From contig OZ360222.1 of assembly GCA_977017645.1 (NCBI GenBank), positions 181,164,001-181,228,000 of the forward strand: a stretch of DNA of 64,000 nucleotides, read 5' to 3'. Below are positions 20,730-51,815 of this stretch, one piece after another. A program made the translations under genes and the position numbers. This DNA is from Torpedo marmorata (Eukaryota). Under the pieces are notes generated by a model. The model did no database searches. It saw nothing but the letters and a program-made list of their open reading frames with translations, and was not told where the DNA came from. Numbering within the stretch: the first letter of the stretch is position 1; each line of letters begins with the position of its first letter.

Positions 20730-22680
20730 CCTTCCCATTCCGCCCCACTCCTCTCCCTCCCCCTCTCCTCTGCTCCCTTCCCCTCGCTCTCTCTCTTCCC
20801 TCCCCTCCTCCCCTCCTCCCCTCCCTTTCTTCCTCCCCCTCCCTTTCTTCCTCCCCCTCCCCTTCCTCCCCTCCCCTTCTTCCTCACCCTCCCCTTCTTC
20901 CTCCCCTCCCCTTCTTCCTCCCCTCCCTCCTTTCCTCCCCACCCTCCTTTCCTCCCCCTCCCTCCTTTCCTCAGCCTCCCTCCTTTCCTCCCCTCCCACC
21001 TTCCCCCCTTCCCTCCCATCCCCCTTCCCNNNNNNNNNNNNNNNNNNNNNNNNNNNNNNNNNNNNNNNNNNNNNNNNNNNNNNNNNNNNNNNNNNNNNNN
21101 NNNNNNNNNNNNNNNNNNNNNNNNNNNNNNNNNNNNNNNNNNNNNNNNNNNNNNNNNNNNNNNNNNNNNNNNNNNNNNNNNNNNNNNNNNNNNNNNNNNN
21201 NNNNNNNNNNNNNNNACCCTCCCCCTCCCTCCTTTCCTCCCCTCCCCTCCCTCCTTTCCTCCCCCTCCCCTCACTTCTTTCCTCCCCCTCCCTCCCTCCT
21301 TTCCTTCCCTTCCTCCTTTCCTCCCCTCCCCTCCCTCTTTTCCTCCCCCTCCCTCCTTTCCTCCCTCTCCCCCTCCCTCTTTTTCTCCCCCTCCCCTCCC
21401 TCCTTTCCTCCCCCTCCCCTCACTCCTTTCCTCCCCCTCCCTCCTTTCCTACCCGCCCCCTCCCTCCTTTCCTCCCCTCTCTCCTTTCCTCCCCCTCCCT
21501 CCTTTCCTACCCGCCCCCTCCCTCCTTTCCTCCCCTCTCTCCTTTCCTCCCCCTCCTTCCTTTCCTCCCCTCCCTCCTTTCTTTCCCCTCCCTCCTTTCT
21601 TCCCCCTCCCTTCTTTCCTCCCCTCCCCCACCCTCCTTTCCTCCCCCTCCCTCCTTTCCTCCTCCTCCCCATCTCCTCCTTTCCTCCCCCTCCCTCCCTC
21701 CTTTCCTCCCCCTCCCTCCCTCCCTCCTTTCCTCTCCTTTCTTCCTTTCCTCTCCTTTCTTCCTTTCCTCTNNNNNNNNNNNNNNNNNNNNNNNNNNNNN
21801 NNNNNNNNNNNNNNNNNNNNNNNNNNNNNNNNNNNNNNNNNNNNNNNNNNNNNNNNNNNNNNNNNNNNNNNCTCCCCCTCCCTCCCTCCTTCCTCCCTCC
21901 CCCCTCTCCCCTCCCTCCCACCCTCCTTTCCTACCCCTCCCTCCCCCTTTCCTCTCCTTTCCTCTCCATCCTCACCTTTCCTCTCCTTCTTCCTTTCCTC
22001 CCCTTTCCTCCCCCTCCCTCCCTCCCCTTCCTCCCCCTCCCTCCCTCCCCTTTCCTCCCCTCCCCTATCCTCCCCTCCCTCCTTTCCTCCACTTTCCTCC
22101 CCTCTCTCCCCTCCCCTTCTCCCTCCTCCCTCCCTCCCCTTTCACCCCCTCCCCTCTCCCTCCTTTCTCCCCCTCCCTCCTCCTTTCCTCCCCCTCTCTC
22201 CTTTCCTCCCACTCCCTCCTTTCCTCCCCCTCCCCATCCCTTCTTCCTCCCCCTCCCCTCCCTCATTCCTCCCCTCCCCTCCCTCTTTTCCTCCCCCTCC
22301 CCTCCCTCCTTTCCTCCCCCTCCCCCCTCCCTCCTTTCCTTCCCTCCCCTCTTTCCTCCCCATCCCCCTCCCTCCTTTCCTCCCTTCCCCTCCCTCCTTT
22401 CCTCCCCTTCCCTCCCTCCTTTCCTCCCCCTCCCTCCCTCCCCTTTCCTCCCCCTCCCTCCCCTCCCTCCCTCCCTTTCCTCCCCCTCCCTCCCTGGCCT
22501 TTACTCCCCCTCCCNNNNNNNNNNNNNNNNNNNNNNNNNNNNNNNNNNNNNNNNNNNNNNNNNNNNNNNNNNNNNNNNNNNNNNNNNNNNNNNNNNNNNN
22601 NNNNNNNNNNNNNNNNNNNNNNNNNNNNNNNNNNNNNNNNNNNNNNNNNNNNNNNNNNNNNNNNNNNCTCTCCCCTCCCC
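20730..22680. repeat. About 2-kb polypyrimidine/polypurine low-complexity tract (CCCTCCTTTCCTCC-like units) with three assembly gaps
   Basis: Almost pure C/T on the + strand; N runs at 21030-21215, 21772-21871 and 22515-22667. Confidence 0.95.
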
Positions 22681-22739
22681 TAGTTCTCCTTTCACTGAAC
22701 CCGCTGCACACTCCATCCTCTCTCTCCCTTACCCCAACC

Positions 22740-23190
22740 ACAACCATTCCTACAGTGACATGTCTATCCGGAGCCTTATCCATTGTCAGAGTGAGGCCAA
22801 ATGTGAACTTGAGCAATGACACATCACATTCCTCCTGGACAGTTTAAACCCCAAGGTATGAACATTAAATGTTTTTCTAATATTAGGTAACCCACCCCCA
22901 TCTGGTTCCACTGTTTCCATCTCTTCTTCACCTAATCGTTTAAAATATCCCCTTTCTTTAACTTTTCTCCCCCTCCCCCGCAACGGTCTGTCCCTTGACC
23001 CGTCTCTCCATCTCTCACACCTTCTGTCCTATTACCTCTGTGCCCTCCCAGCTTCTTTCGCTTTACATTTATAATTTTACCCTCTTTAGTCTTGATAAAG
23101 GGTCCAGACTCAGAGTGATGACTGACCATTTCTACCCATGAATGTTGTCTGGCCTGCTGAGTTCCTCCAGCAATTCTTTGTCTGCTCAAC
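22740..23190 (+). mobile_element. Diverged Penelope 3' fragment
   Basis: HSYSDMSIRSLIHCQSEAKCELEQ*HITFLLDSL followed by the family tail. Confidence 0.7.
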
Positions 23191-23673
23191 CTATATATAT
23201 ATATAGTACAGCAGAGAGTGTACGAATTAAATATAGTTTTACAATAAAACTAAAGTGCAGGGTGTGGTGTAACATCAGACAAAAGTGCAGAGCATAATGT
23301 TAAAGAGAAAAATAAAGTTAAAACAGTGCAAGGCATCATCTTATACTGATGGGAGGTCGATTCAACATACTAATAACAGCAAGAAATGAACTGTCCTTGA
23401 ATCTGGCGGTGCGAGTTTTCAAACTCGTGTAACTTCTGCCTGACCCTATGGGGGAGAGGATGCGATGTGTCCTTTAATATTTTGGCTGCTTTCCCAAGGC
23501 AGAAGGGGTTGAAGATAGAGTAAGAATTTTGGTGCATATGTACATTGTACAATAGACATGACAATAAATTCATTATCATTAGAGTCTGTGGAGGGGAGGT
23601 TGGTTTGTGTGATTTGAGCTGAGTACTGATCAGTTGTAGGGTTTGGAGCATTTGAAGTTAGATGATTCAGTGG

Positions 23674-24052
23674 CAGGGGCAATATGCCCCATGCGGTAGG
23701 ATTGAACAGTTCCAACAGGGGCAATATGCCCCATGCGGTAGGATTGAACAGTTCCAACAGGGGCAATATGCCCCATGCGGTAGGATTGAACAGTTCCAAC
23801 AGGGGCAATATGCCCCATGCGGTAGGATTGAACAGTTCCAACAGGGGCAATATGCCCCATGCGGTAGGATTGAACAGTTCCAACAGGGGCAATATGCCCC
23901 ATGCGGTAGGATTGAACAGTTCCAACAGGGGCAATATGCCCCATGCGGTAGGATTGAACAGTTCCAACAGGGGCAATATGCCCCATGCGGTAGGATTGAA
24001 CAGTTCCAACAGGGGCAATATGCCCCATGCGGTAGGATTGAACAGTTCCAAC
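23674..24052. repeat. Perfect minisatellite, 9 x 42 bp (CAGGGGCAATATGCCCCATGCGGTAGGATTGAACAGTTCCAA)
   Basis: Nine identical contiguous units with no spacers. Confidence 0.97.
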
Positions 24053-24301
24053 TGTGCTCACATCTCTCTCCACAGATGCTGGCTGATCTTCTGAGTATTT
24101 CTGGTATTTTCAGTTCTGATTCTAATGGGGAACTTGCCTTGACAGTCAGATGTAACATAGGATCATGGATGCTGGTTGTTCTTCTGGGGATTCTTGGCTA
24201 GAGGTTAGCAGCAAATGGGCAAGTTGGTTTTTCAAATATTTGACATTATTTCTTTTTGTTTTCATGTGCTTTTTTGTCAAATGTATTTTTAAAATATGTT
24301 A

Positions 24302-34522: not shown

Positions 34523-34589
34523 ATCAGTTTCTATTTCAGCTTCCCACTGTCTGTAGTTTCTTTGATTTTGAGCTTTTATTAAAGGTAAG

Positions 34590-35175
34590 TGTAAGAGCCG
34601 TAGGCTCGTTAACTTACCGTTGTTGCGGCGCTCCGATGTCTCGGCGGCCCGTTCGGAGCGCTCGCGTTGTCTGTGGGCCGTTCTCGGCCCGTTCTGTGCT
34701 CTGCGCATGCGCTGGAGTGCCGACGGGCGCGTGCGCAGTTTGGAGTGACGTCATTGTGCGCGGTGCAGTCTGGGAGATGTAGTGTGCGCGGTGGACGGTG
34801 CGCAGTGTTATGGGAGCGACGGAGCATGCGCGAATCGGGTAGAGGAGGAAAGGAATAGAATAAAGGAAAGATGGAGATTTAGGAGGGTGAGTGAGATCTC
34901 CATATCTTTATTGACCGTTTTTACAGCGTTTTATAGTGTTTTATAACGTCTTATACATCGTTTTGGAATTGTTTAAAGAATCATTTAAAGAAATTCATCA
35001 TACATCATTTCAAGAACTGTTTATATTGAAGTCATTGAAGATTACTGCAAGTCACGTGTGTAAATAAAGGTTTTAAACATATTGGACTTTCTTGGTAAAT
35101 TAATTAAAACGCGTCAAAGACAAGTATCTCACTTAGCCTCCAGGTGACTATTGTTGGATCGAAGTCACCATAATA
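34590..35175 (+). repeat. 5' LTR
   Basis: TGTAAGAGCC...CACCATAATA; I count about 5 substitutions relative to the 3' LTR. Confidence 0.93.
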
Positions 35176-35622
35176 TAGTCAATAAAGAGGCTGTTTGGAA
35201 CAGAAAATTGAAGGAAAGAAGATAGAATAATCTCTCTGTGCTTTGGACTGATATATAAAATGGTGGCCATCTTGGAGATGCCTCGAGTTGGGGGCAGTTT
35301 GTAATCTACATCCATCTGCCATGAAAAACAGCCAGAGAGGGATTTAAAGCTTCAAATCTTATAATAAAGTGTCCTATAAATACGTTGGAGAAACCATTTT
35401 TGGAAAATCAGTGATATTAGTGATGGATGTTGTGGTTGAAACTCGTTTGTGGATTGCAGCACATTACAGTCATTTGAAGTGGTAGGCATAAGTCTGTGGA
35501 CTCCTTCTGTGTATCTTTAGCAAGTAAGAACACAGATTGGAATTGCTGCCGCTGGTCCATTGGGGACTGTTGTTTGGCTAGTGTTGTGTATGCTTGAAGG
35601 AAAGAGGAACAAGACGAGTAAA

Positions 35623-38600
35623 ATGGCCGCAGCAGCCTCTGATACAGCAGCTACTGATGTATCAGCAGCTGACGCAGCAACCGCTGATGTTGCTGTTGAG
35701 GACCAACGTATTGAAGACATGAAGGTTGCGGATATTAAAGAAGAATTGAAGCGACTGAAAAAGGACATAAGTGGAAATAAAAGGGCTCTTATCGAAAGAT
35801 TAAAGCAGGCAAAGGATGAAGAGGCAGCTTCATTAGTTGAACAAGAAGATAACTTGGAAATGGCTGAAATTGTGTCAACAAATGATGAAGAAATTAAAGT
35901 GGTTGAAGATGCAAAGGATATACAATTTGAATTGGATAAAGAGGTAAGTATGAAGACAGCATATGAACTGCAGGACGAAATACAAGCAAGTGACAGTGTC
36001 TCAAATGCTGAAAGCAGGAGAAGCAAAAGAAGTTCTGGTTCGAGCTCCAGAGTTTCTCGTACTTCAAGTTCTGCATCGTCACGTACAAAGGTTGATGTTA
36101 AATTGGCCGCTCTTCTTGCACAACAAAAAACGCTTAAGGATAAGTATATTTTGGAAGAAGAGGAGGAGCAGCTAAGACAAAAGGAGGAGCAGCTAAAGGA
36201 GCAGCTAAGACAAAAGGGGGAGCAGGTAAAGGAGCAGCTAAGACAAAAGGAGGAGCAGCTAAAGGAGCAGCTAAGACAAAAGGAGGAGCAGCTAAAGGAG
36301 CAGCTGAGACAAAAGGAGGAGCAGGTAAAGGAGCGGCTAAGACAAAAGGAGGAGCAGCTAAGACAAGAGGAGGAGCAGCTGAGACAAAATGAGAAACAGC
36401 TAAAGGAGCAGCTAAGACAAAATGAGAAGCAGCCAATGGAGCAGCTAAGACAAGAGAAGGAGCAGCTAAGGAAGAGAAAAGAACAGCAGGAGCTGGAAGC
36501 AAACATTGCTATTGCCAAGGCAGAAAAGAAAGCAATAGAAGGCTCAATGGTATCTGGTGCTAGCAGTAAATTATCTAAATTGTCTGATAATAAAAGGTCA
36601 TATTTAAAAAAGGAGTCACAGGAAAAGAAACCAACCAAAAGGATAGATATTTTAGAACCAAGGATACAAAACTTACATATACAAGGACAAACCTTTCAAG
36701 AGCATATTGGTATCGAGTCACATGTACCAATAGTAACATCTGAAAGCAAAGCTGCGGCTTGGGTTCGGTCGAACGAAGCAGCATCTTTGTTATATGAGTC
36801 AAGCATCAGAAATATGGAAGAAACTACACCAGTGAGGTTTCCAGATACATTGCATGCAACAAGAGACGGTGAACAGAGCAATGTATTGTCATCCAAGGAA
36901 AGACAGAATGAAACTGCTGCATCATTGTTTCAGTTACAGTCTCTCTCTTCTTTACCCAAGAAAGAGATACAAACTTTTGATGGTGATCCACTTCAATATC
37001 AATCATTTATGAGATCTTTCAAAAGCAATATTGAAGATAAATGTCAAGATCGTGATGAATGTCTTTATTATTTGGAAATGTTCACAAAGGGACATCCAAA
37101 AGAACTGGTAAAGAGTTGTAAACAAATGTCTTCAGAAAGAGGATTAGACAAAGCTAAGGCTTTATTGGAACAATATTTTGGCAACAAGCATCGAATTGCT
37201 TTAGCTTATATGGATAAAGCTCTTAAATGGACATCAATAAAACAAAATGATGTAAAGGCTCTGCAAGAATATACTTTGTTTTTAAGAGGATGTTGTAATG
37301 CTATGGAAGAAATTGATAATATTCGTGAGCTTGAAGTGCATAGTAATATGCGAATCATCTTAGAAAAATTACCTTACAAGTTATGGGATAGATGGAGAGA
37401 TTTGGCTTGTGATTTACAAGTAGATTACGGTCGAAAAATTACCTTAAAGGATTTGGTAAATTTTCTTGAACGACGGGTGTACGTTGAAACGGATCCACTA
37501 TATGGAAATACCAGAGATAATTCGATGGGCAAAGATGTAAGGAAGTCTAACACACAGTCTAGTCCGAAATTAAAAAGGAGTACTTTTGCTACTAATGTGC
37601 AAGTTATAAGTAAAGAAAATGACAAAGTAAATAAGGAAAAGGAAAGTTTGCCAAATGAAAAGAGTTGTTTGTTCTGTAAAGATGGACATGCTTTGGAAAT
37701 GTGTTTACGATTGGAAAAGAAGGAACATAAGGAAAAGATCGCTTTCTTAAAGGAAAATGGAATATGTTTTAGCTGTCTGTGTAAAGGGCACATCAGTAAA
37801 AACTGCGAGAAGCGAATTAATTGTAACATATGCAATTTGAAACATCCTAGAATTTTGCATATCCATAACAGAAACAAGGAATTGGAAATGGAGCAAACAG
37901 AAACAAAGGAAACAACAGAAAATAATGTTATAACCTCGGTTCAGACAAGTGGTCTTACTGGGGCCGGGGTGAATAACTGCAAACTTTCAATAGTGCCTGT
38001 ACAAGTCAAGGCCAAGAAAGGGGATGTAATAGTAAAAACATATGCATTTTTAGACCCAGACAGCACTGCATCTTTTTGCACGGAAGGACTAATGAATAAA
38101 CTTAATATTCAAGGAAAAAGATCAAGAATTATGTTAAAAACCATGGGACAAGAAAAGGTTGTTGAAACTAACATTATAACAGGCTTAGAGGTTGCTGGAT
38201 TGGATGACAAAAAATGTTGTGATCTTCCAAGTGTATATACTCAGAAGACTATGCCTGTGAATGAAGGAAATATTCCTCATCAAAGGGATATCCATCATTT
38301 AGCTTATCTGTGGAAGGTTTATTTACCTGAAATTAATTCTGAGATAGAAATGCTGATTGGTTCAGATGTGCCAAAGATTTTGGTACCAAAAGAAGTAATA
38401 GAAAGTAAAAGGAATGGACCTTATGCTGTTAAAACCATTCTTGGTTGGACAATCAATGGACCAATGGAAAGAAATAATAATATTGCTCAGGAACAGGTAG
38501 CGATAAATATTAATAGAATTTCGGTTGAGAAAGTTGAAGAGTTAAGCGAAGAGCAAAAAACTGTGAATAAGAAAATCACTTTTGAAGAAAAGAAAACAGA

Positions 38601-38655
38601 TCAATGTGAAAATAAATCAATGGTATTTAAAACAACATTGAAGGAATTAATTTAG
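35623..38655 (+). CDS. SAP domain + BEL/Pao Gag (DUF1759 capsid, three Cys/His knuckles) + aspartic protease; 1010 aa from the likely ATG
   Basis: SAP IEDMKVADIKEELKRLKKDISGNKRALIERLKQA; Gag LPKKEIQTFDGDPLQYQSF; knuckles CLFC..H....C, CFSC....H....C, CNIC...H...LH; protease TYAFLDPDSTASFCTE...GPYAVKTILGWTINGP. Confidence 0.9.
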   Translation: MAAAASDTAATDVSAADAATADVAVEDQRIEDMKVADIKEELKRLKKDISGNKRALIERLKQAKDEEAASLVEQEDNLEMAEIVSTNDEEIKVVEDAKDIQFELDKEVSMKTAYELQDEIQASDSVSNAESRRSKRSSGSSSRVSRTSSSASSRTKVDVKLAALLAQQKTLKDKYILEEEEEQLRQKEEQLKEQLRQKGEQVKEQLRQKEEQLKEQLRQKEEQLKEQLRQKEEQVKERLRQKEEQLRQEEEQLRQNEKQLKEQLRQNEKQPMEQLRQEKEQLRKRKEQQELEANIAIAKAEKKAIEGSMVSGASSKLSKLSDNKRSYLKKESQEKKPTKRIDILEPRIQNLHIQGQTFQEHIGIESHVPIVTSESKAAAWVRSNEAASLLYESSIRNMEETTPVRFPDTLHATRDGEQSNVLSSKERQNETAASLFQLQSLSSLPKKEIQTFDGDPLQYQSFMRSFKSNIEDKCQDRDECLYYLEMFTKGHPKELVKSCKQMSSERGLDKAKALLEQYFGNKHRIALAYMDKALKWTSIKQNDVKALQEYTLFLRGCCNAMEEIDNIRELEVHSNMRIILEKLPYKLWDRWRDLACDLQVDYGRKITLKDLVNFLERRVYVETDPLYGNTRDNSMGKDVRKSNTQSSPKLKRSTFATNVQVISKENDKVNKEKESLPNEKSCLFCKDGHALEMCLRLEKKEHKEKIAFLKENGICFSCLCKGHISKNCEKRINCNICNLKHPRILHIHNRNKELEMEQTETKETTENNVITSVQTSGLTGAGVNNCKLSIVPVQVKAKKGDVIVKTYAFLDPDSTASFCTEGLMNKLNIQGKRSRIMLKTMGQEKVVETNIITGLEVAGLDDKKCCDLPSVYTQKTMPVNEGNIPHQRDIHHLAYLWKVYLPEINSEIEMLIGSDVPKILVPKEVIESKRNGPYAVKTILGWTINGPMERNNNIAQEQVAININRISVEKVEELSEEQKTVNKKITFEEKKTDQCENKSMVFKTTLKELI
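36161..36480 (+). repeat. In-frame coding tandem repeat (33/21-nt units, EEQLRQKEEQLK) in Gag
   Basis: About 10 units of GAGCAGCTAAGACAAAAGGAG(GAGCAGCTAAAG). Confidence 0.9.
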
Positions 38656-38899
38656 TCAGAAATGGATGAAAGTGAAGTATTAGAAGATGTTGCAAATAAT
38701 ACTATTGATCATTCATGTGTAATTGAATCAAATACAGGAATAAAACAAGTGACTGAAAACAAATCTGAATGTAGATTTTGTAGTTCAGAGATTACAACAG
38801 ACAAAGCTAATGAAGAAATATTGCAATGTGATGTAAAACTGGAAAACACAGAAAATTGTGCTGATGGAATAAAGAATAATGTGAATGATAATCTAATGC

Positions 38900-39435
38900 A
38901 ATTGAATTCAGAGAACAAAATGTTGAAAGGGGAATTGGAAATATTAGATAATCAAGAAAACAGTAGACAAAAAGATTTAATTGTAAGTAAAACTCGCAAT
39001 GTCAGAAAGCGGAAGAAAAGAATAACTGCTGAAGAAATGAATACAGTTATTGAGGAAAGAGATACAGCATTATCAAAATGTAAAAGGTTGGAGGAAGAAA
39101 TTAATGTTTTGAAAGAGAACAAGTTATTGGTTAATAACACAACAGTTGACTTTAAAAACCAATCAAAAATGTAAATTGAATATTCAACAATTAACAATGC
39201 AGAAAGAATGTGATATTGCATTGCAGAAATGTAACAAACAAGATGAAGAAATTAAAAAATTTCAAGTTTGTCGCAACAGGATTGACAATGGAAATATCAA
39301 CGTATTACATGATATTTTGACTTCAGATCAAATTATTAATTTCTCGGAAAGAACTGAGACCGAATTGAAAGTTGCAAAATTGGATTTAGAATTGCAGGAA
39401 AGAGCCATAGAAACCAGAGTGGTTAAACAGACCTG
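38900..39435 (+). pseudogene. Captured MIPOL1-like coiled-coil fragment inside the LTR element
   Basis: RITAEEMNTVIEERDTALSKCKRLEEEI versus human MIPOL1 as I recall it, RITAEEMSALIEERDAALSKCKRLEQEL; the similarity continues across a frameshift. Confidence 0.7.
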
Positions 39436-39639
39436 TTTAAAATCGAAAGGATCAGATAAATATTCAAATTCTAATTCTAAGAGTTTAAATTCTTCACATG
39501 AAAAGTGGAATACTGAAGAAAGGAATAAAGTGAAACGACATGCTGAAGAAGTGCCTTGTGTTAAATTTAAAAAAAACTGTATCTATTTTGTCTGAGGAAG
39601 ATTTGAGGTTTACTGGTTGACGTTTTAACTCAGATTATG

Positions 39640-39840
39640 AAGATAAAAGAACTTTAAAGAGACATTGTGATTATTATGGATAATTCAACTTCAAGAAACT
39701 CCTGGTTACTTGGAAAAATTATTGAGACTTTTCAAGACAAAGAGGACTTGTGCGTCAAGTGTGAATTAAAACTAAGACTGGTTTTTCGAAACAGACCTAT
39801 TAACAAGGTCTGCCTTTTGTTGGAGACAGAGGAACTTTGA
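39640..39840 (+). pseudogene. BEL/Pao integrase C-terminal (DUF5641-type) remnant
   Basis: DIVIIMDNSTSRNSWLLGKIIETFQDK/GLVRQV*IKTKTG/RPINKVCLLLE, with compensating frameshifts. Confidence 0.8.
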
Positions 39841-40042
39841 TAAATATAAACTGACTTTATTTGTTGTTGTATATTTCACAGGTTACAGACTTTTGTTGAA
39901 TCAGAGTTATGGTAAACTCTAGATTTATGAAGAAGGAAGAAAGAAGATTTGTATTGTTTGAATGTTACGGTTATTGTTATTATAATTTATAGTGTAATTA
40001 TTATTCAAGACATTGCGTCTAATTATAATAATTAGGGGCCGG

Positions 40043-40628
40043 TGTAAGAGCCGTAGGCTCGTTAACTTACCGTTGTTGCGGCGCTCCGATGTCTCGGCGG
40101 CCCGTTCGGAGCGCTCGCGTTGTCTGTGGGCCGTTCTCGGCCCGTTCTGTGCTCTGTGCATGCGCTGGAGTGCCGACGGGCGCGTGCGCAGTTTGGAGTG
40201 ACGTCATTGTGCGCGGTGCAGTCTGGGAGATGTAGTGTGCGCGGTGGAGGGTGCGCAGTGTTATGGGAGCGACGGAGCATGCGCAAATCGGGTAGAGGAG
40301 GAAAGGAATAGAATAAAGGAAAGATGGAGATTTAGGAGGGTGAGTGAGATCTCCATATCTTTATTGACCGTATTTACAGCGTTTTATAGTGTTTTATAAC
40401 GTCTTATACATCGTTTTGGAATTGTTTAAAGAATCATTTAAAGAAATTCATCATACATCATTTCAAGAACTGTTTATATTGAAGTCATTGAAGATTACTG
40501 CAAGTCACGTGTGTAAATAAAGGTTTTAAACATATTGGACTTTCTTGGTAAATTAATTAAAACGCGTCTAAGACAAGTATCTCACTTAGCCTCCAGGTGA
40601 CTATTGTTGGATCGAAGTCACCATAATA
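40043..40628 (+). repeat. 3' LTR
   Basis: Direct repeat of 34590-35175, preceded by the PPT. Confidence 0.93.
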
Positions 40629-42639
40629 GTAAGTTTCAGACCTTTTTTAATTTTGTGGGACTCCCTCCCATAAGGTGGCAGGACCAAAGGCAGCACCCAT
40701 TTAGTTCAAGTTTATTGTCATATATATAAGTACAATGTGCATATGCCCGAATTCTTACTTGCTGCAGCTGAACAGGTGCATAAAATACACCAACTATGCT
40801 AGTATACATTTAGTACACCAAAATCAGGTGAAATCCCATTCCAAGATACATTACATCTGCTGTTGCCACTGAGCGTTTCCAGTTTTTGTGTTGTAATTTC
40901 ACATTTGAATGATCTTCTTTTCTCTTTGGGTCTGGTCGGGGAAGCTGTTAGCCTGGCAGATGATTTGTTCTACCTGAATAGCTGTTTAGGTCACAAACTG
41001 AATAACCAGCCTGAAAGTCACTCATCTTGTTCCCTTTTTTAAAAACTGAGGGTGACCTCCTGCATTTCTACTAAGCAGCAAAGTCCCATCTGAATTCATT
41101 GCTGGGAGCAACTCGGTGGTGATGGAGCCCAGCTCCTTGTTCCCATGACTCGGGAAGCTTTATATAGATGCAAATCAGACAGAACTTAGCTTGGGCTCCC
41201 GATGACAAACGTGCCTGCAAGGCTGATGAGGCAATGATACCTCCCAGAAAGGGCATGGTTCTCATTTAGACAACCAGGTCACATTGTTCATTAGTCCTGA
41301 CTGGTGCACTATTCTTGAAGGGAACCTAGAAAGGGAAGAAACATGACATTTCAACATCAATTCTCAGCTACCGATTACTGCGATATACTTCCAGCTTGGC
41401 TGGTTCAAGGCCAAACATTTTTATTTTGCCTGAGAAACGAGCCTTCAAATCAAACACACCTAAGAAAGTATACCAGGAACTAAAGGCTCCAAGATGAAAA
41501 GTGTGCAGTTGGGTGTAGGTAACTCCAACAATTGTTTAAGAAGAGCCTTCTGGATTTCCCACACCACTTTGGTATGTTAGACGTCTGTGCTGTGGGAATG
41601 GGTGGCAGACAGTTTCTGCACACAAGTAAACAGCATGATGTTGGCCTGATTTCAGGGATCATGATTTAGGGATAAATTGAATTGAATTATTTATTGTCCG
41701 AGATACAATGAATAACTTTATTTTGCATGCTATCCAGGCAACCTCCACATTGTACAGCAAGGGGAGCTATATATATATAATGTAAAAATATAATGTTATA
41801 ATAAAACAGAAGTACCTGGAGTAGAGTTGAAGAGAATTCAGTAAAACACCAGGGAATGTCATAGAGTCATATCTGTAAGGAAACAGGCCCTTCTGCCTAT
41901 CCACACCATGATCACCCTCGTGTACCTATCTCCATTAAGCTGATGTGAATCCTGTTTTATTCTTCCCCACATTCCCATCGTCCTCCCTCCGATTCTATCA
42001 CTCACCTGCATATGAGTGCCAATTTACCGTGGCCAATTAAACTTCCAATCTGCGTGTCGTTGAGATGTGGGAGGACCCTTGTTCTGCCTTGAAGTCAAAC
42101 AATGGCCAGTGAGTGACCAGCTGAGAGAGTGGGCAGGCCTTTCAATACCTCAGTCATAAAGTTGGTTTGGAATGGACTTCCAAGAAGGTGGAAAAGAACA
42201 CCGCTTGTCTCATTTAGGGAGGAATTTTGTGCGACAATACGGAACGTTCTATTCCAGGTGGTAGAATTAAATGAGCTGAATGGATATCCTTATCTGTGAA
42301 TATTAGATTTTGAGGTTGGTTCCTTGAGAGAAAAATAGGTGGAACCATTGATGTGAATGGAGATAGTTGAGAGGCAGTATTTATTGCCCCAGGAGTAGTC
42401 TGTGCTTCCATCAGTAGCACCACTACAAAATGTGGAGTTAGTCCTCGAGTCCACCTGACTCACTGATATACCCCTGGGAGGGAGACTTCCTCTCCTTATC
42501 TGCTCAGATAATGACTCCAGAACTATGAACGTGTTGACTCCTTACTATCTGTGGAAGGGTCGCAGAGTAATGTTGCCCTTACTCTGTTCGAACTGATCTC
42601 TCACTGTAACCCTACTCTCTGTACTATGTTTTACTCTGC

Positions 42640-50119: not shown

Positions 50120-51815
50120 GAAACAGCCTACAAAGCGAGGGCGAACACTATAGACGGCTGTGATGCTTCACTACCCGATGAGCTGAACACCTTCTATGCC
50201 CGCTTTGAGAAGAGGAACCAAACAGTGCCTACTAGAATCCCTGAAAAGGCTGAGGACCCTGTGATATCTGTCTCTGAGGGCGACGTCAGAACATCATTCA
50301 AGAGGGTGAACCCTCGCAAGGCGTCAGGCCCTGACGGCGTACCTGGCAGGGTATTGAAAATCTGCGCCAACCAACTAGCCGGAGTGTTCACGGACATTTT
50401 CAACCTCTCATTGCGGCAGTCAGAGGTTCCTACCTGCTTCAAAAGGGCATCAATCATCCCGGTACCCAAGAAGAGTAGTGTGAGCTGCCTCAACGACTAC
50501 CGCCCGGTAGCACTAACTTCTACTGTGATGAAATGCTTTGAGAGGCTGGTCATGGCCAGAATTAACACATACCTAAGCAGAGATCTGGACCCACTGCAAT
50601 TCGCCTATCGCCACAATTGCTCCACAGCAGATGCAATATCGCTGGCTCTCCACTCAGGTCTGGATCACCTTGAAAACAGCAATTCATACATACGGTTGCT
50701 CTTCATCGACTACAGCTCGGCCTTCAATACCATTATTCCCTCAGTGCTGGTCGAGAAGCTACAAACTCTAGGCCTCTGTACCCCCCTCTGCAACTGGATC
50801 CTTGACTTTCTCATCGGAAGACCACAGTCAGTACGAATTGGAAACAATGTCTCCTCCTCACTGATTATCAACACAGGCGCACCCCAAGGATGCGTGCTTA
50901 GTCCACTGCTCTACTCGTTATACACTCATGACTGTGTGGCCAGGCACAATTCCAATGCCATATACAAGTTTGCCGATGACACCACAGTTGTCGGCAGAAT
51001 CACAAACGGCAATGAGGAAGCGTACAGGAGGGAGATAGATCAGCTCGTTGAATGGTGTAATGACAACAACCTTGAGCTCAATGTCAGCAAAACCAAGGAG
51101 ATGATTGTGGACTTCCGGAGGAAGTCAGGGGAACACGACCCAGTCCTCATCGATGTCTCAGTCGTGGAGAGGGTCAAGAACTTCAAATTCCTGGGTGTCA
51201 ACATCTCCGAGGATCTGTCCTGGAGCATCCACGTGGATGCAATCACAAAGAAGGCTCGTCAGCGGCTATACTTTGTGAGGTGTTTGCGGAGATTCGGTAT
51301 GTCAGCAAAGACTCTCGTAAACTTCTACAGGTGTACCGTGGAGAGCATTCTGGCTGGTTGCATCACTGCCTGGTATGGTGGCGCCAACTCCCAGGACAAG
51401 AGTAAACTCCAGAAGGTTGTTAACTCGGCCTGTGACATCACAGGCACCAAACTTCACTCCATCGAGGACATCTACATGAGGCGGTGTCTTAAAAAAGCAG
51501 CCGCTATCCTCAAGGATCCCCACCACCCAGGCCATGCCCTCTTCACTCTGCTTCCATCGGGGAAAAGGTACAGGAGCCTAAAGACGAGCACTCAACGGCA
51601 CAAGGACAGCTTCTTCCCCACTGCCATCAGATTCTTGAATAATCAATGAACCAAAGACACTACCTTACTTTTCGTGCACTATTGTTTATAATTTTTTATA
51701 GTAATGTCGTTAGAATGGTTAATATGAATGTTAAATGCACTATGATGCTGCCGCAAAACACCGAATTTCATGACTTGTTCATGACAATAAATTCTGATTC
51801 TGTTTCTGATTCTGA
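50120..51815 (+). mobile_element. 5'-truncated Rex1/Babar-type LINE with an uninterrupted RT frame (open 50120-51649)
   Basis: [50 protein letters not shown] and a DUF1891 C-terminus; tail AATAAATTCTGATTCTG; the endonuclease is absent. Confidence 0.93.

Follow-up and report, generated by a model that had tools for sequence, protein, structure and literature searches.

The 5' end of host sltm mRNA as the N-terminus of Gag in a BEL/Pao-type retrotransposon of Torpedo marmorata

The Gag protein of an LTR retrotransposon of the BEL/Pao type in Torpedo marmorata begins with a SAP domain that was captured from the 5' end of the host's own sltm mRNA, an origin that we regard as practically certain. 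The element was studied in a window of 64,000 nucleotides (assembly GCA_977017645.1, contig OZ360222.1, positions 181,164,001 to 181,228,000 of the forward strand; coordinates given here count from the first letter of this stretch) and in its sister copies, grouped as subfamilies A, B, and C, in the 6.2-Gb host genome.

The window copy lies on the plus strand between the two copies of a 5-bp target-site duplication (34585..34589 and 40629-40633). Its LTRs, each of 586 nt (34590..35175 and 40043..40628), are 99.1% identical, and a polypurine tract (40029..40042) stands before the 3' LTR, which is 2 nt shorter than in most sister copies. The LTR termini of subfamily A have TA instead of CA (35175-35177; L031-L050, L089-L098), and TACA occurs in a B copy. 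A single frame that joins SAP, Gag, and protease is open from 35623 up to a stop at 38653-38655. The BEL Gag and protease (35971..38576, plus strand) include a conserved DEIQxxDSVSN motif, 33-nt coiled-coil repeats, a DUF1759 core, and three Cys/His knuckles; the repeats (36131-36525), which encode the Gag coiled coil, differ in number among copies. A segment at 38577..39660 on the same strand substitutes for reverse transcriptase (RT), RNase H, and integrase. It is disrupted in the window copy by the stop at 38653-38655 and by a frameshift near 39140-39175. Many sister copies keep it open and in frame, with ORFs of 1,250-1,370 residues.

The window element measures 6.0 kb, and copies range from 5.3 to 8.1 kb; element and LTR sizes fall inside the ranges given for Belpaoviridae (LTRs of 0.2-1.2 kb, genomes of 4.2-10 kb; ICTV profile PMC8742986). 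Sister copies of ~8 kb have a single ORF of ~2,000 residues with SAP, DUF1759, RVT_1, Peptidase_A17, integrase, and DUF5641, and in these pol-bearing copies the Pao-type order of Gag, protease, RT, RNase H, and integrase is present. Copies of ~6 kb, the type found in the window, have no RT, RNase H, or integrase and a 1.1-kb replacement instead. Among the best 120 of 215 protein matches, all 120 have Peptidase_A17, DUF1759, or DUF5641, and they are 42-61% identical to the element in Gag-protease. Judged by these protein features, the element is a BEL/Pao LTR retrotransposon.

A 60-residue SAP query returned 31,437 first-look candidates, which are not copy numbers, and all 150 of the 150 that were scored are 97-100% identical. 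The share of DNA covered by the element is 37 of 540 kb in one host stretch and <1% in three others. LTR pairs of subfamily A are mostly 97-100% identical (one 95%, one 93%), and this near-identity points to recent movement. A target-site duplication of 5 bp was called in 18 of 30 copies examined; some copies adjoin, stand head-to-head with, or are nested in others of the same family (L036, L042, L047, L097, L104). The element also occurs in contigs of other organisms, where 13 of 14 listed runs contain part of the stretch; one contig covers the SAP part with 6 differences, and none of those listed bridges B-type junctions by 31 nt on both sides. Elsewhere in the window there is an ordinary reverse-transcriptase ORF of 373 codons (50528-51649), presumably of LINE type, as well as a minisatellite of 42 nt (23590-24136) and a simple repeat, skewed toward purines, that includes an N stretch (20733-22777).

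A first-pass annotation of this DNA had read a peptide from 35623, in frame with Gag, as a SAP domain related to those of SLTM and SAFB. The peptide does belong to the same ORF as DUF1759, the Cys/His knuckles, and the protease motif, and a Pfam scan places the SAP domain (PF02037) at residues 30-63, with 37.5 bits over 52 aa, above the curated cut-off of 23.9 bits, and an E value of 1.1e-8 over 130 aa. The captured segment opens, on the plus strand, with what is left, in decayed form, of the sltm 5' UTR and the context of its start codon (35592..35622), 14 nt shorter than in subfamily B. The host-derived start codon and Ala-rich leader follow (35623..35709), the leader being lengthened by short repeats in C and A, and then the SAP domain itself (35710..35824), made of sltm exon 1 and the first 16 nt of exon 2, with the splice joint at 35808/35809. 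The template included the 5' UTR and the Ala leader. The likeness claimed between DNLEMAEIVST and the DNIEL segment of SLTM is not homology: the captured piece stops 16 nt into exon 2 in 14/14 B copies, and NLEMAE lies in an acidic linker (35825..35970) that is non-sltm and indel-prone, with a dN/dS of 0.5-0.9 between B and A. In most B copies NLEMAE sits 25 codons past AIEEE; a 45-nt deletion in subfamily A drew it near, so the resemblance is coincidental. An antisense ORF of 329 codons (minus strand, 35517-36506) covers the SAP and coil region; it is open for 200-370 codons in many copies and is probably a by-product of codon use.

As to the donor, the window copy alone is ambiguous: over 33 residues its identity is 61% both with SLTM and with one SAFB. 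A search of representative proteins gave 39 matches, none of them a BEL protein, in which the top seven were multi-SAP proteins and SLTM-type proteins (two so named) made up 8 of the 12 single-SAP matches; subfamily B was then revealed by a search of the genome with marsupial SLTM. Residues 1-110 gave no match in a word-index protein search, and a PDB search, which ranked the MKL1 SAP first and listed no SLTM or SAFB chain, cannot name the donor. With an RRM query, the host genome yielded one sltm gene (C68) and two safb genes (C54); these paralogues, at C54:18,175,2xx and C54:17,097,0xx, are ~1 Mb apart on the same strand.

Over 189 nt, UTR included, subfamily B shares 88-90% identity with exon 1 of host sltm, against 72-74% with one safb gene (blastn) and 62-72% with both over 99 nt. 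The match begins ~38 nt 5' of the ATG, directly after a GC box, and runs on into exon 2, the intervening 1,184-nt intron being absent. Since the exons are joined without this intron, what was captured is the 5' end of a spliced mRNA. The ~38 nt of UTR are found in 13 of 14 B copies, the remaining one having an indel there, and this 5' edge probably lies near the mRNA cap. In a SAP tree, all 15 element rows (15/15) group with sltm, not safb, at 100/100. Thus the capture of sltm or safb 5' exons put forward in the first-pass annotation is borne out, both by the nucleotide alignment to host sltm that it suggested, in which subfamily B matches from the UTR through exon 1, and by the tree, and the donor is narrowed to sltm. 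The spliced, sharp-edged insert suggests that reverse transcriptase switched templates onto co-packaged sltm mRNA and stopped at or near the cap.

The three subfamilies form a graded series. Identity of the SAP core to host sltm is 91-96% in B, 74-77% in C, and 66-71% in A, with two intermediate copies at 88% and 72%; as it declines from B to A, the A content of the core climbs from 32% to 45%, and the GC content of the captured piece has drifted from 47% to 37%. Pfam SAP scores are 46.6 for the host, 49.3 for B, 49.5 for C, and 37.5 for A. A Gag tree, from which three short copies were left out, places B beside SAP-less outgroups and unites C and A in a clade at 100/100. LTR identity (91-96% in B, 88-93% in C) does not give the order of B before C, and the order B, C, A follows instead from the trees and from the distance to sltm. 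One could also suppose that SAP is old in the BEL lineage and that homology let subfamily B re-copy it from sltm mRNA: at two residues A and C agree with safb and generic SAP domains and not with sltm (a loop Asn in both, a Glu in A). However, A and C have shortened remnants of the sltm UTR, with a start context and junctions that in the alignment are identical in kind to those of B; they are nearer to sltm than to either safb (0.66 vs 0.48-0.59 and 0.75 vs 0.54-0.65, respectively); and they nest with sltm at 100/100, with B as the basal branch. Re-copying is therefore largely refuted, and we find it scarcely credible.

What the captured piece displaced can be read from the relatives. The first-pass annotation had noted that ancient and widespread SAP-Gag fusions would speak against a capture, and had described a PHD finger as the usual N-terminal accessory domain of BEL Gag. 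Among the best 120 of 215 matches, SAP occurs in 0/120 by Pfam lists and phmmer, so that an old and common fusion is absent from the closest listed relatives, and PHD likewise occurs in 0/120, which gives no support to a PHD finger as the domain displaced in this lineage. The N-termini of 36 of 45 relatives share another domain of ~120 residues, which appears helical from its sequence, and the remaining 9 are truncated or do not have it; similarity to the relatives mostly begins near residues 105-118 of the window protein. By this comparison SAP replaced the relatives' N-terminal domain, and the sltm 5' end took its place through an in-frame fusion. A SAP-less parent did not emerge among the 55 candidates from a single query with the P0004 N-terminal domain, a result that does not imply absence.

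Across 53 distinct copies (56 rows, 3 of them repeated) the 38-codon SAP core is free of indels, whereas the UTR, leader, and linker took several. Nine of its positions are invariant, including a loop Gly and the Lys that opens helix 2, and surface Lys/Arg positions are kept; a single-sequence structure model of the domain is one long helix and uninformative. We equate the Gly and Lys, as a likely correspondence, with residues of the SLX4 SAP, in which, according to the available part of PMC13171448, such a Gly is conserved and such a Lys binds DNA. In three B-vs-A pairs, dN/dS is 0.08-0.19 for SAP, 0.5-1.3 for three flanking linkers, and 0.29-0.35 for the Gag core, and SAP compared with the host gives 0.12-0.26. 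When the same 37 base changes were placed at random, at least 23 of 38 residues were kept in 3 of 1000 draws (mean 17.6); a profile-based null gave 0/1000 and is biased, its profile having been built from proteins found with the same query. The low SAP dN/dS is in part a product of high dS, inflated by composition drift, and pN is equal in SAP (0.21-0.27) and the next linker (0.24-0.26). Within subfamily A, pN/pS is 0.41 for SAP, the same as for the next linker, and 0.18 for the Gag core; the A-copy SAP has a net charge of only +1 and a Pfam score 9 bits under the host's. Taken together, these comparisons of sequences make it very probable that purifying selection keeps SAP at the protein level, with a function there.

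Some of these measures would also suit a SAP domain that binds nothing useful and is carried as a passenger, supplying a strong start codon and, in place of the lost domain, a small folded cap. The host start-codon context is retained in A, B, and C, the pN of SAP is not below that of the next linker, and an insertion bias was not seen. Yet a passenger would hardly account for a core free of indels, for the kept surface Lys/Arg positions, or for the 3/1000 of the residue-retention null, and we consider it unlikely. The protein-level record bears also on anti-silencing at the RNA level, in which small RNAs from the element would target sltm mRNA, as in Drosophila TART with nxf2. Perfect 25-nt matches to sltm exons 1-2 exist in 2/2 B copies tested, and captured pieces of 140-235 nt work in this way in flies (PMC13534243, passages available). 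However, A and C copies match just 19-21 of 25 nt (3/3 tested), the same passages of PMC13534243 report ~80% identity as insufficient for targeting, and in the element residues were kept while synonymous sites drifted freely; targeting by small RNAs is thus quite improbable.

We lean, with modest confidence, toward a grip on nucleic acid: the Gag-borne SAP would bind DNA and so keep the particle, or the pre-integration complex, attached to chromatin or to its own cDNA. Small Gag or integrase modules proposed to hold an element on chromatin are found in MLV p12, foamy-virus Gag, and chromovirus chromodomains; to our knowledge none of these tethers is a SAP domain. A grip of this kind would go without a strong choice of AT-rich sites. 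The AT-rich scaffold or matrix DNA to which the first-pass annotation had pointed is not reflected in the insertion flanks (AT 0.599 vs a background of 0.599, p 0.85, in 18 of 30 copies examined), which leaves matrix-attachment targeting without support. SAP domains bind varied kinds of DNA and sometimes proteins, as described in the available part of PMC13171448.

A decoy is another use that a captured SAP might have: the Gag SAP would compete with SLTM/SAFB for DNA sites or partners and weaken SAFB-type suppression of A-rich transposon RNA. Through A-rich RNA, the SAFB family suppresses L1 as well as LTR elements, the latter in mouse and fly (available text of PMC10901741), the element ORF is itself A-rich (45% A in the SAP core), and silencing genes have been captured by other transposons (PMC13534243, same passages). 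However, SAP alone was captured, without the RRM and ER-rich parts; it retains the general features of SAP domains but has drifted to 61% identity with SLTM, which a specific mimic should not do; and in the HeLa assay reported in that text of PMC10901741, L1 retrotransposition changed little or not at all when SLTM alone was lost. Ranked by our own judgment, the nucleic-acid grip comes first, followed by the passenger, then by the decoy, which we think somewhat less likely than the passenger, and, well below these, by small-RNA targeting and re-copying.

The tail of the window element contains a second capture. At 38973..39430 (plus strand) are five intron-free host exon pieces, likely of mipol1, in the permuted order D-E-F-A-B, with a back-splice-type joint at 39276/39277. 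The ESM Atlas put MIPOL1 clusters first for the tail (0.95; recognition 1627, weak), and the donor was found by synteny, in a 540-kb part of C40 that lies between a FoxA and a Pax gene. The FoxA gene has HNF3-alpha as its best PDB match, and we take it to be FoxA1 partly from its residues; the name mipol1 is likewise our assumption, drawn from the Atlas match together with human synteny and sequence. Host exons with AG/GT ends lie at C40:64,385,7xx-64,591,9xx on the minus strand, and five of them align with the tail of the window element at 69-88%. In the genome the exons run A-B-(C)-D-E-F. In the element the donor of exon F is joined exactly, and in frame, to the acceptor of exon A, and the jump from A to B occurs at a short shared word. 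The F-to-A pattern was seen in 18 copies, and one C-type copy already has the joint. Non-colinear exons with an exact back-splice joint mark a circular-RNA template, other routes being possible (PMC4897178, part available); this joint therefore points to such a template, and the mipol1 tail was likely copied from circular RNA. The subfamily with this tail is non-autonomous and very large (46,589 first-look candidates; 123 scored at 95-100%). The first ~130 and last ~60 residues of the tail had no match in pol or in the 540 kb searched, and the corresponding parts (38577-38972 and 39431-39660) possibly come from a third captured source.

Priming is a further peculiarity. The primer-binding site (35178..35188, plus strand), which does not appear tRNA-like, pairs with an 11-nt stretch of the LTR (34905..34915) that is complementary to it and is likely a self-primer. 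The pairing extends over 10-15 nt, and its two sides co-vary among A, B, and C; in 69 rows (some copies repeated) it was at least 10 nt in 51 and 7-9 nt in 5, and the wrong site was picked in 13. Belpaovirids use a tRNA primer, with an 18-nt site for tRNA-Arg or tRNA-Gly (ICTV profile PMC8742986). The primer site would thus depart from BEL/Pao tRNA priming, while the protein evidence still places the element in BEL/Pao, and Tf1-type self-priming in a BEL element is the likely reading. The available part of PMC6317226 reports self-priming in Tf1/Sushi elements (Ty3/gypsy) and in some lineages of copia; the Tf1/Sushi primer site, like that of the window element, is complementary to the element's own LTR and not to a tRNA, and the difference is that the window element belongs to BEL/Pao.

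Host-mRNA capture by LTR elements is already known (PMC4299795, PMC13534243), as is SAP in other transposons (PMC8557442), to go by the available passages of these papers. CrocERV29 with KIT-ligand, CrocERV31 with nectin3, and RSV with src likewise hold intron-free host mRNA in an LTR element under purifying selection, and the retrovirus and ERV transductions likewise include one capture with autonomy kept and one that cost coding domains (excerpt of PMC4299795). Unlike the captures in that excerpt, the present one is in BEL/Pao, and the host piece forms the in-frame N-terminus of Gag, gives UTR and start codon, and replaces a domain. Drosophila telomeric transposons with pieces of nxf2, piwi, or aub similarly have ~200 nt of a transposon-suppressing gene in an active element, but act via small RNAs (PMC13534243, in part), whereas in the sltm piece the protein is conserved and the nucleotide sequence is not. 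SAP is also an accessory domain of Zisupton DNA transposons and of Chlamys-1_pPol Penelope-like elements, which are of other classes and have it at other positions, with no host donor named in the passage available (PMC8557442). A mouse circRFWD2 pseudogene, LTR-flanked, also has non-colinear exons with an exact back-splice joint (PMC4897178, in part); unlike it, the permuted exons described here belong to a large subfamily and share the reading frame of Gag-protease. The available portions of PMC3118150 and of the Atlas capsid preprint (10.64898/2026.03.22.711591) do not mention SAP. In the literature searched we found no SAP-Gag BEL element, no sltm capture, and no BEL/Pao self-priming; Repbase and Dfam may already contain these families as consensus sequences.

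Tentatively, and as a possibility to which we give less than even weight, a vertebrate BEL/Pao lineage may repeatedly build proteins from host RNAs: the SAP of a suppressor family as the N-terminus of Gag, to grip chromatin or to blunt SAFB-type defence, and then a very large non-autonomous subfamily in which a coiled coil from circular RNA ends Gag-protease, with reverse transcription in the lineage primed by the element itself. The element offers a stepwise record of domain gain from a host: a single genome contains the donor gene, the two junctions with the intron absent, and the intermediate subfamilies. As the SAFB family of the donor restrains transposons, a conflict between host and transposon becomes testable at the protein level. 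The replication of BEL/Pao elements is poorly understood (ICTV profile PMC8742986), and the replaced Gag N-terminus, the likely self-priming, and the coding capture from a likely circular RNA give handles on it.
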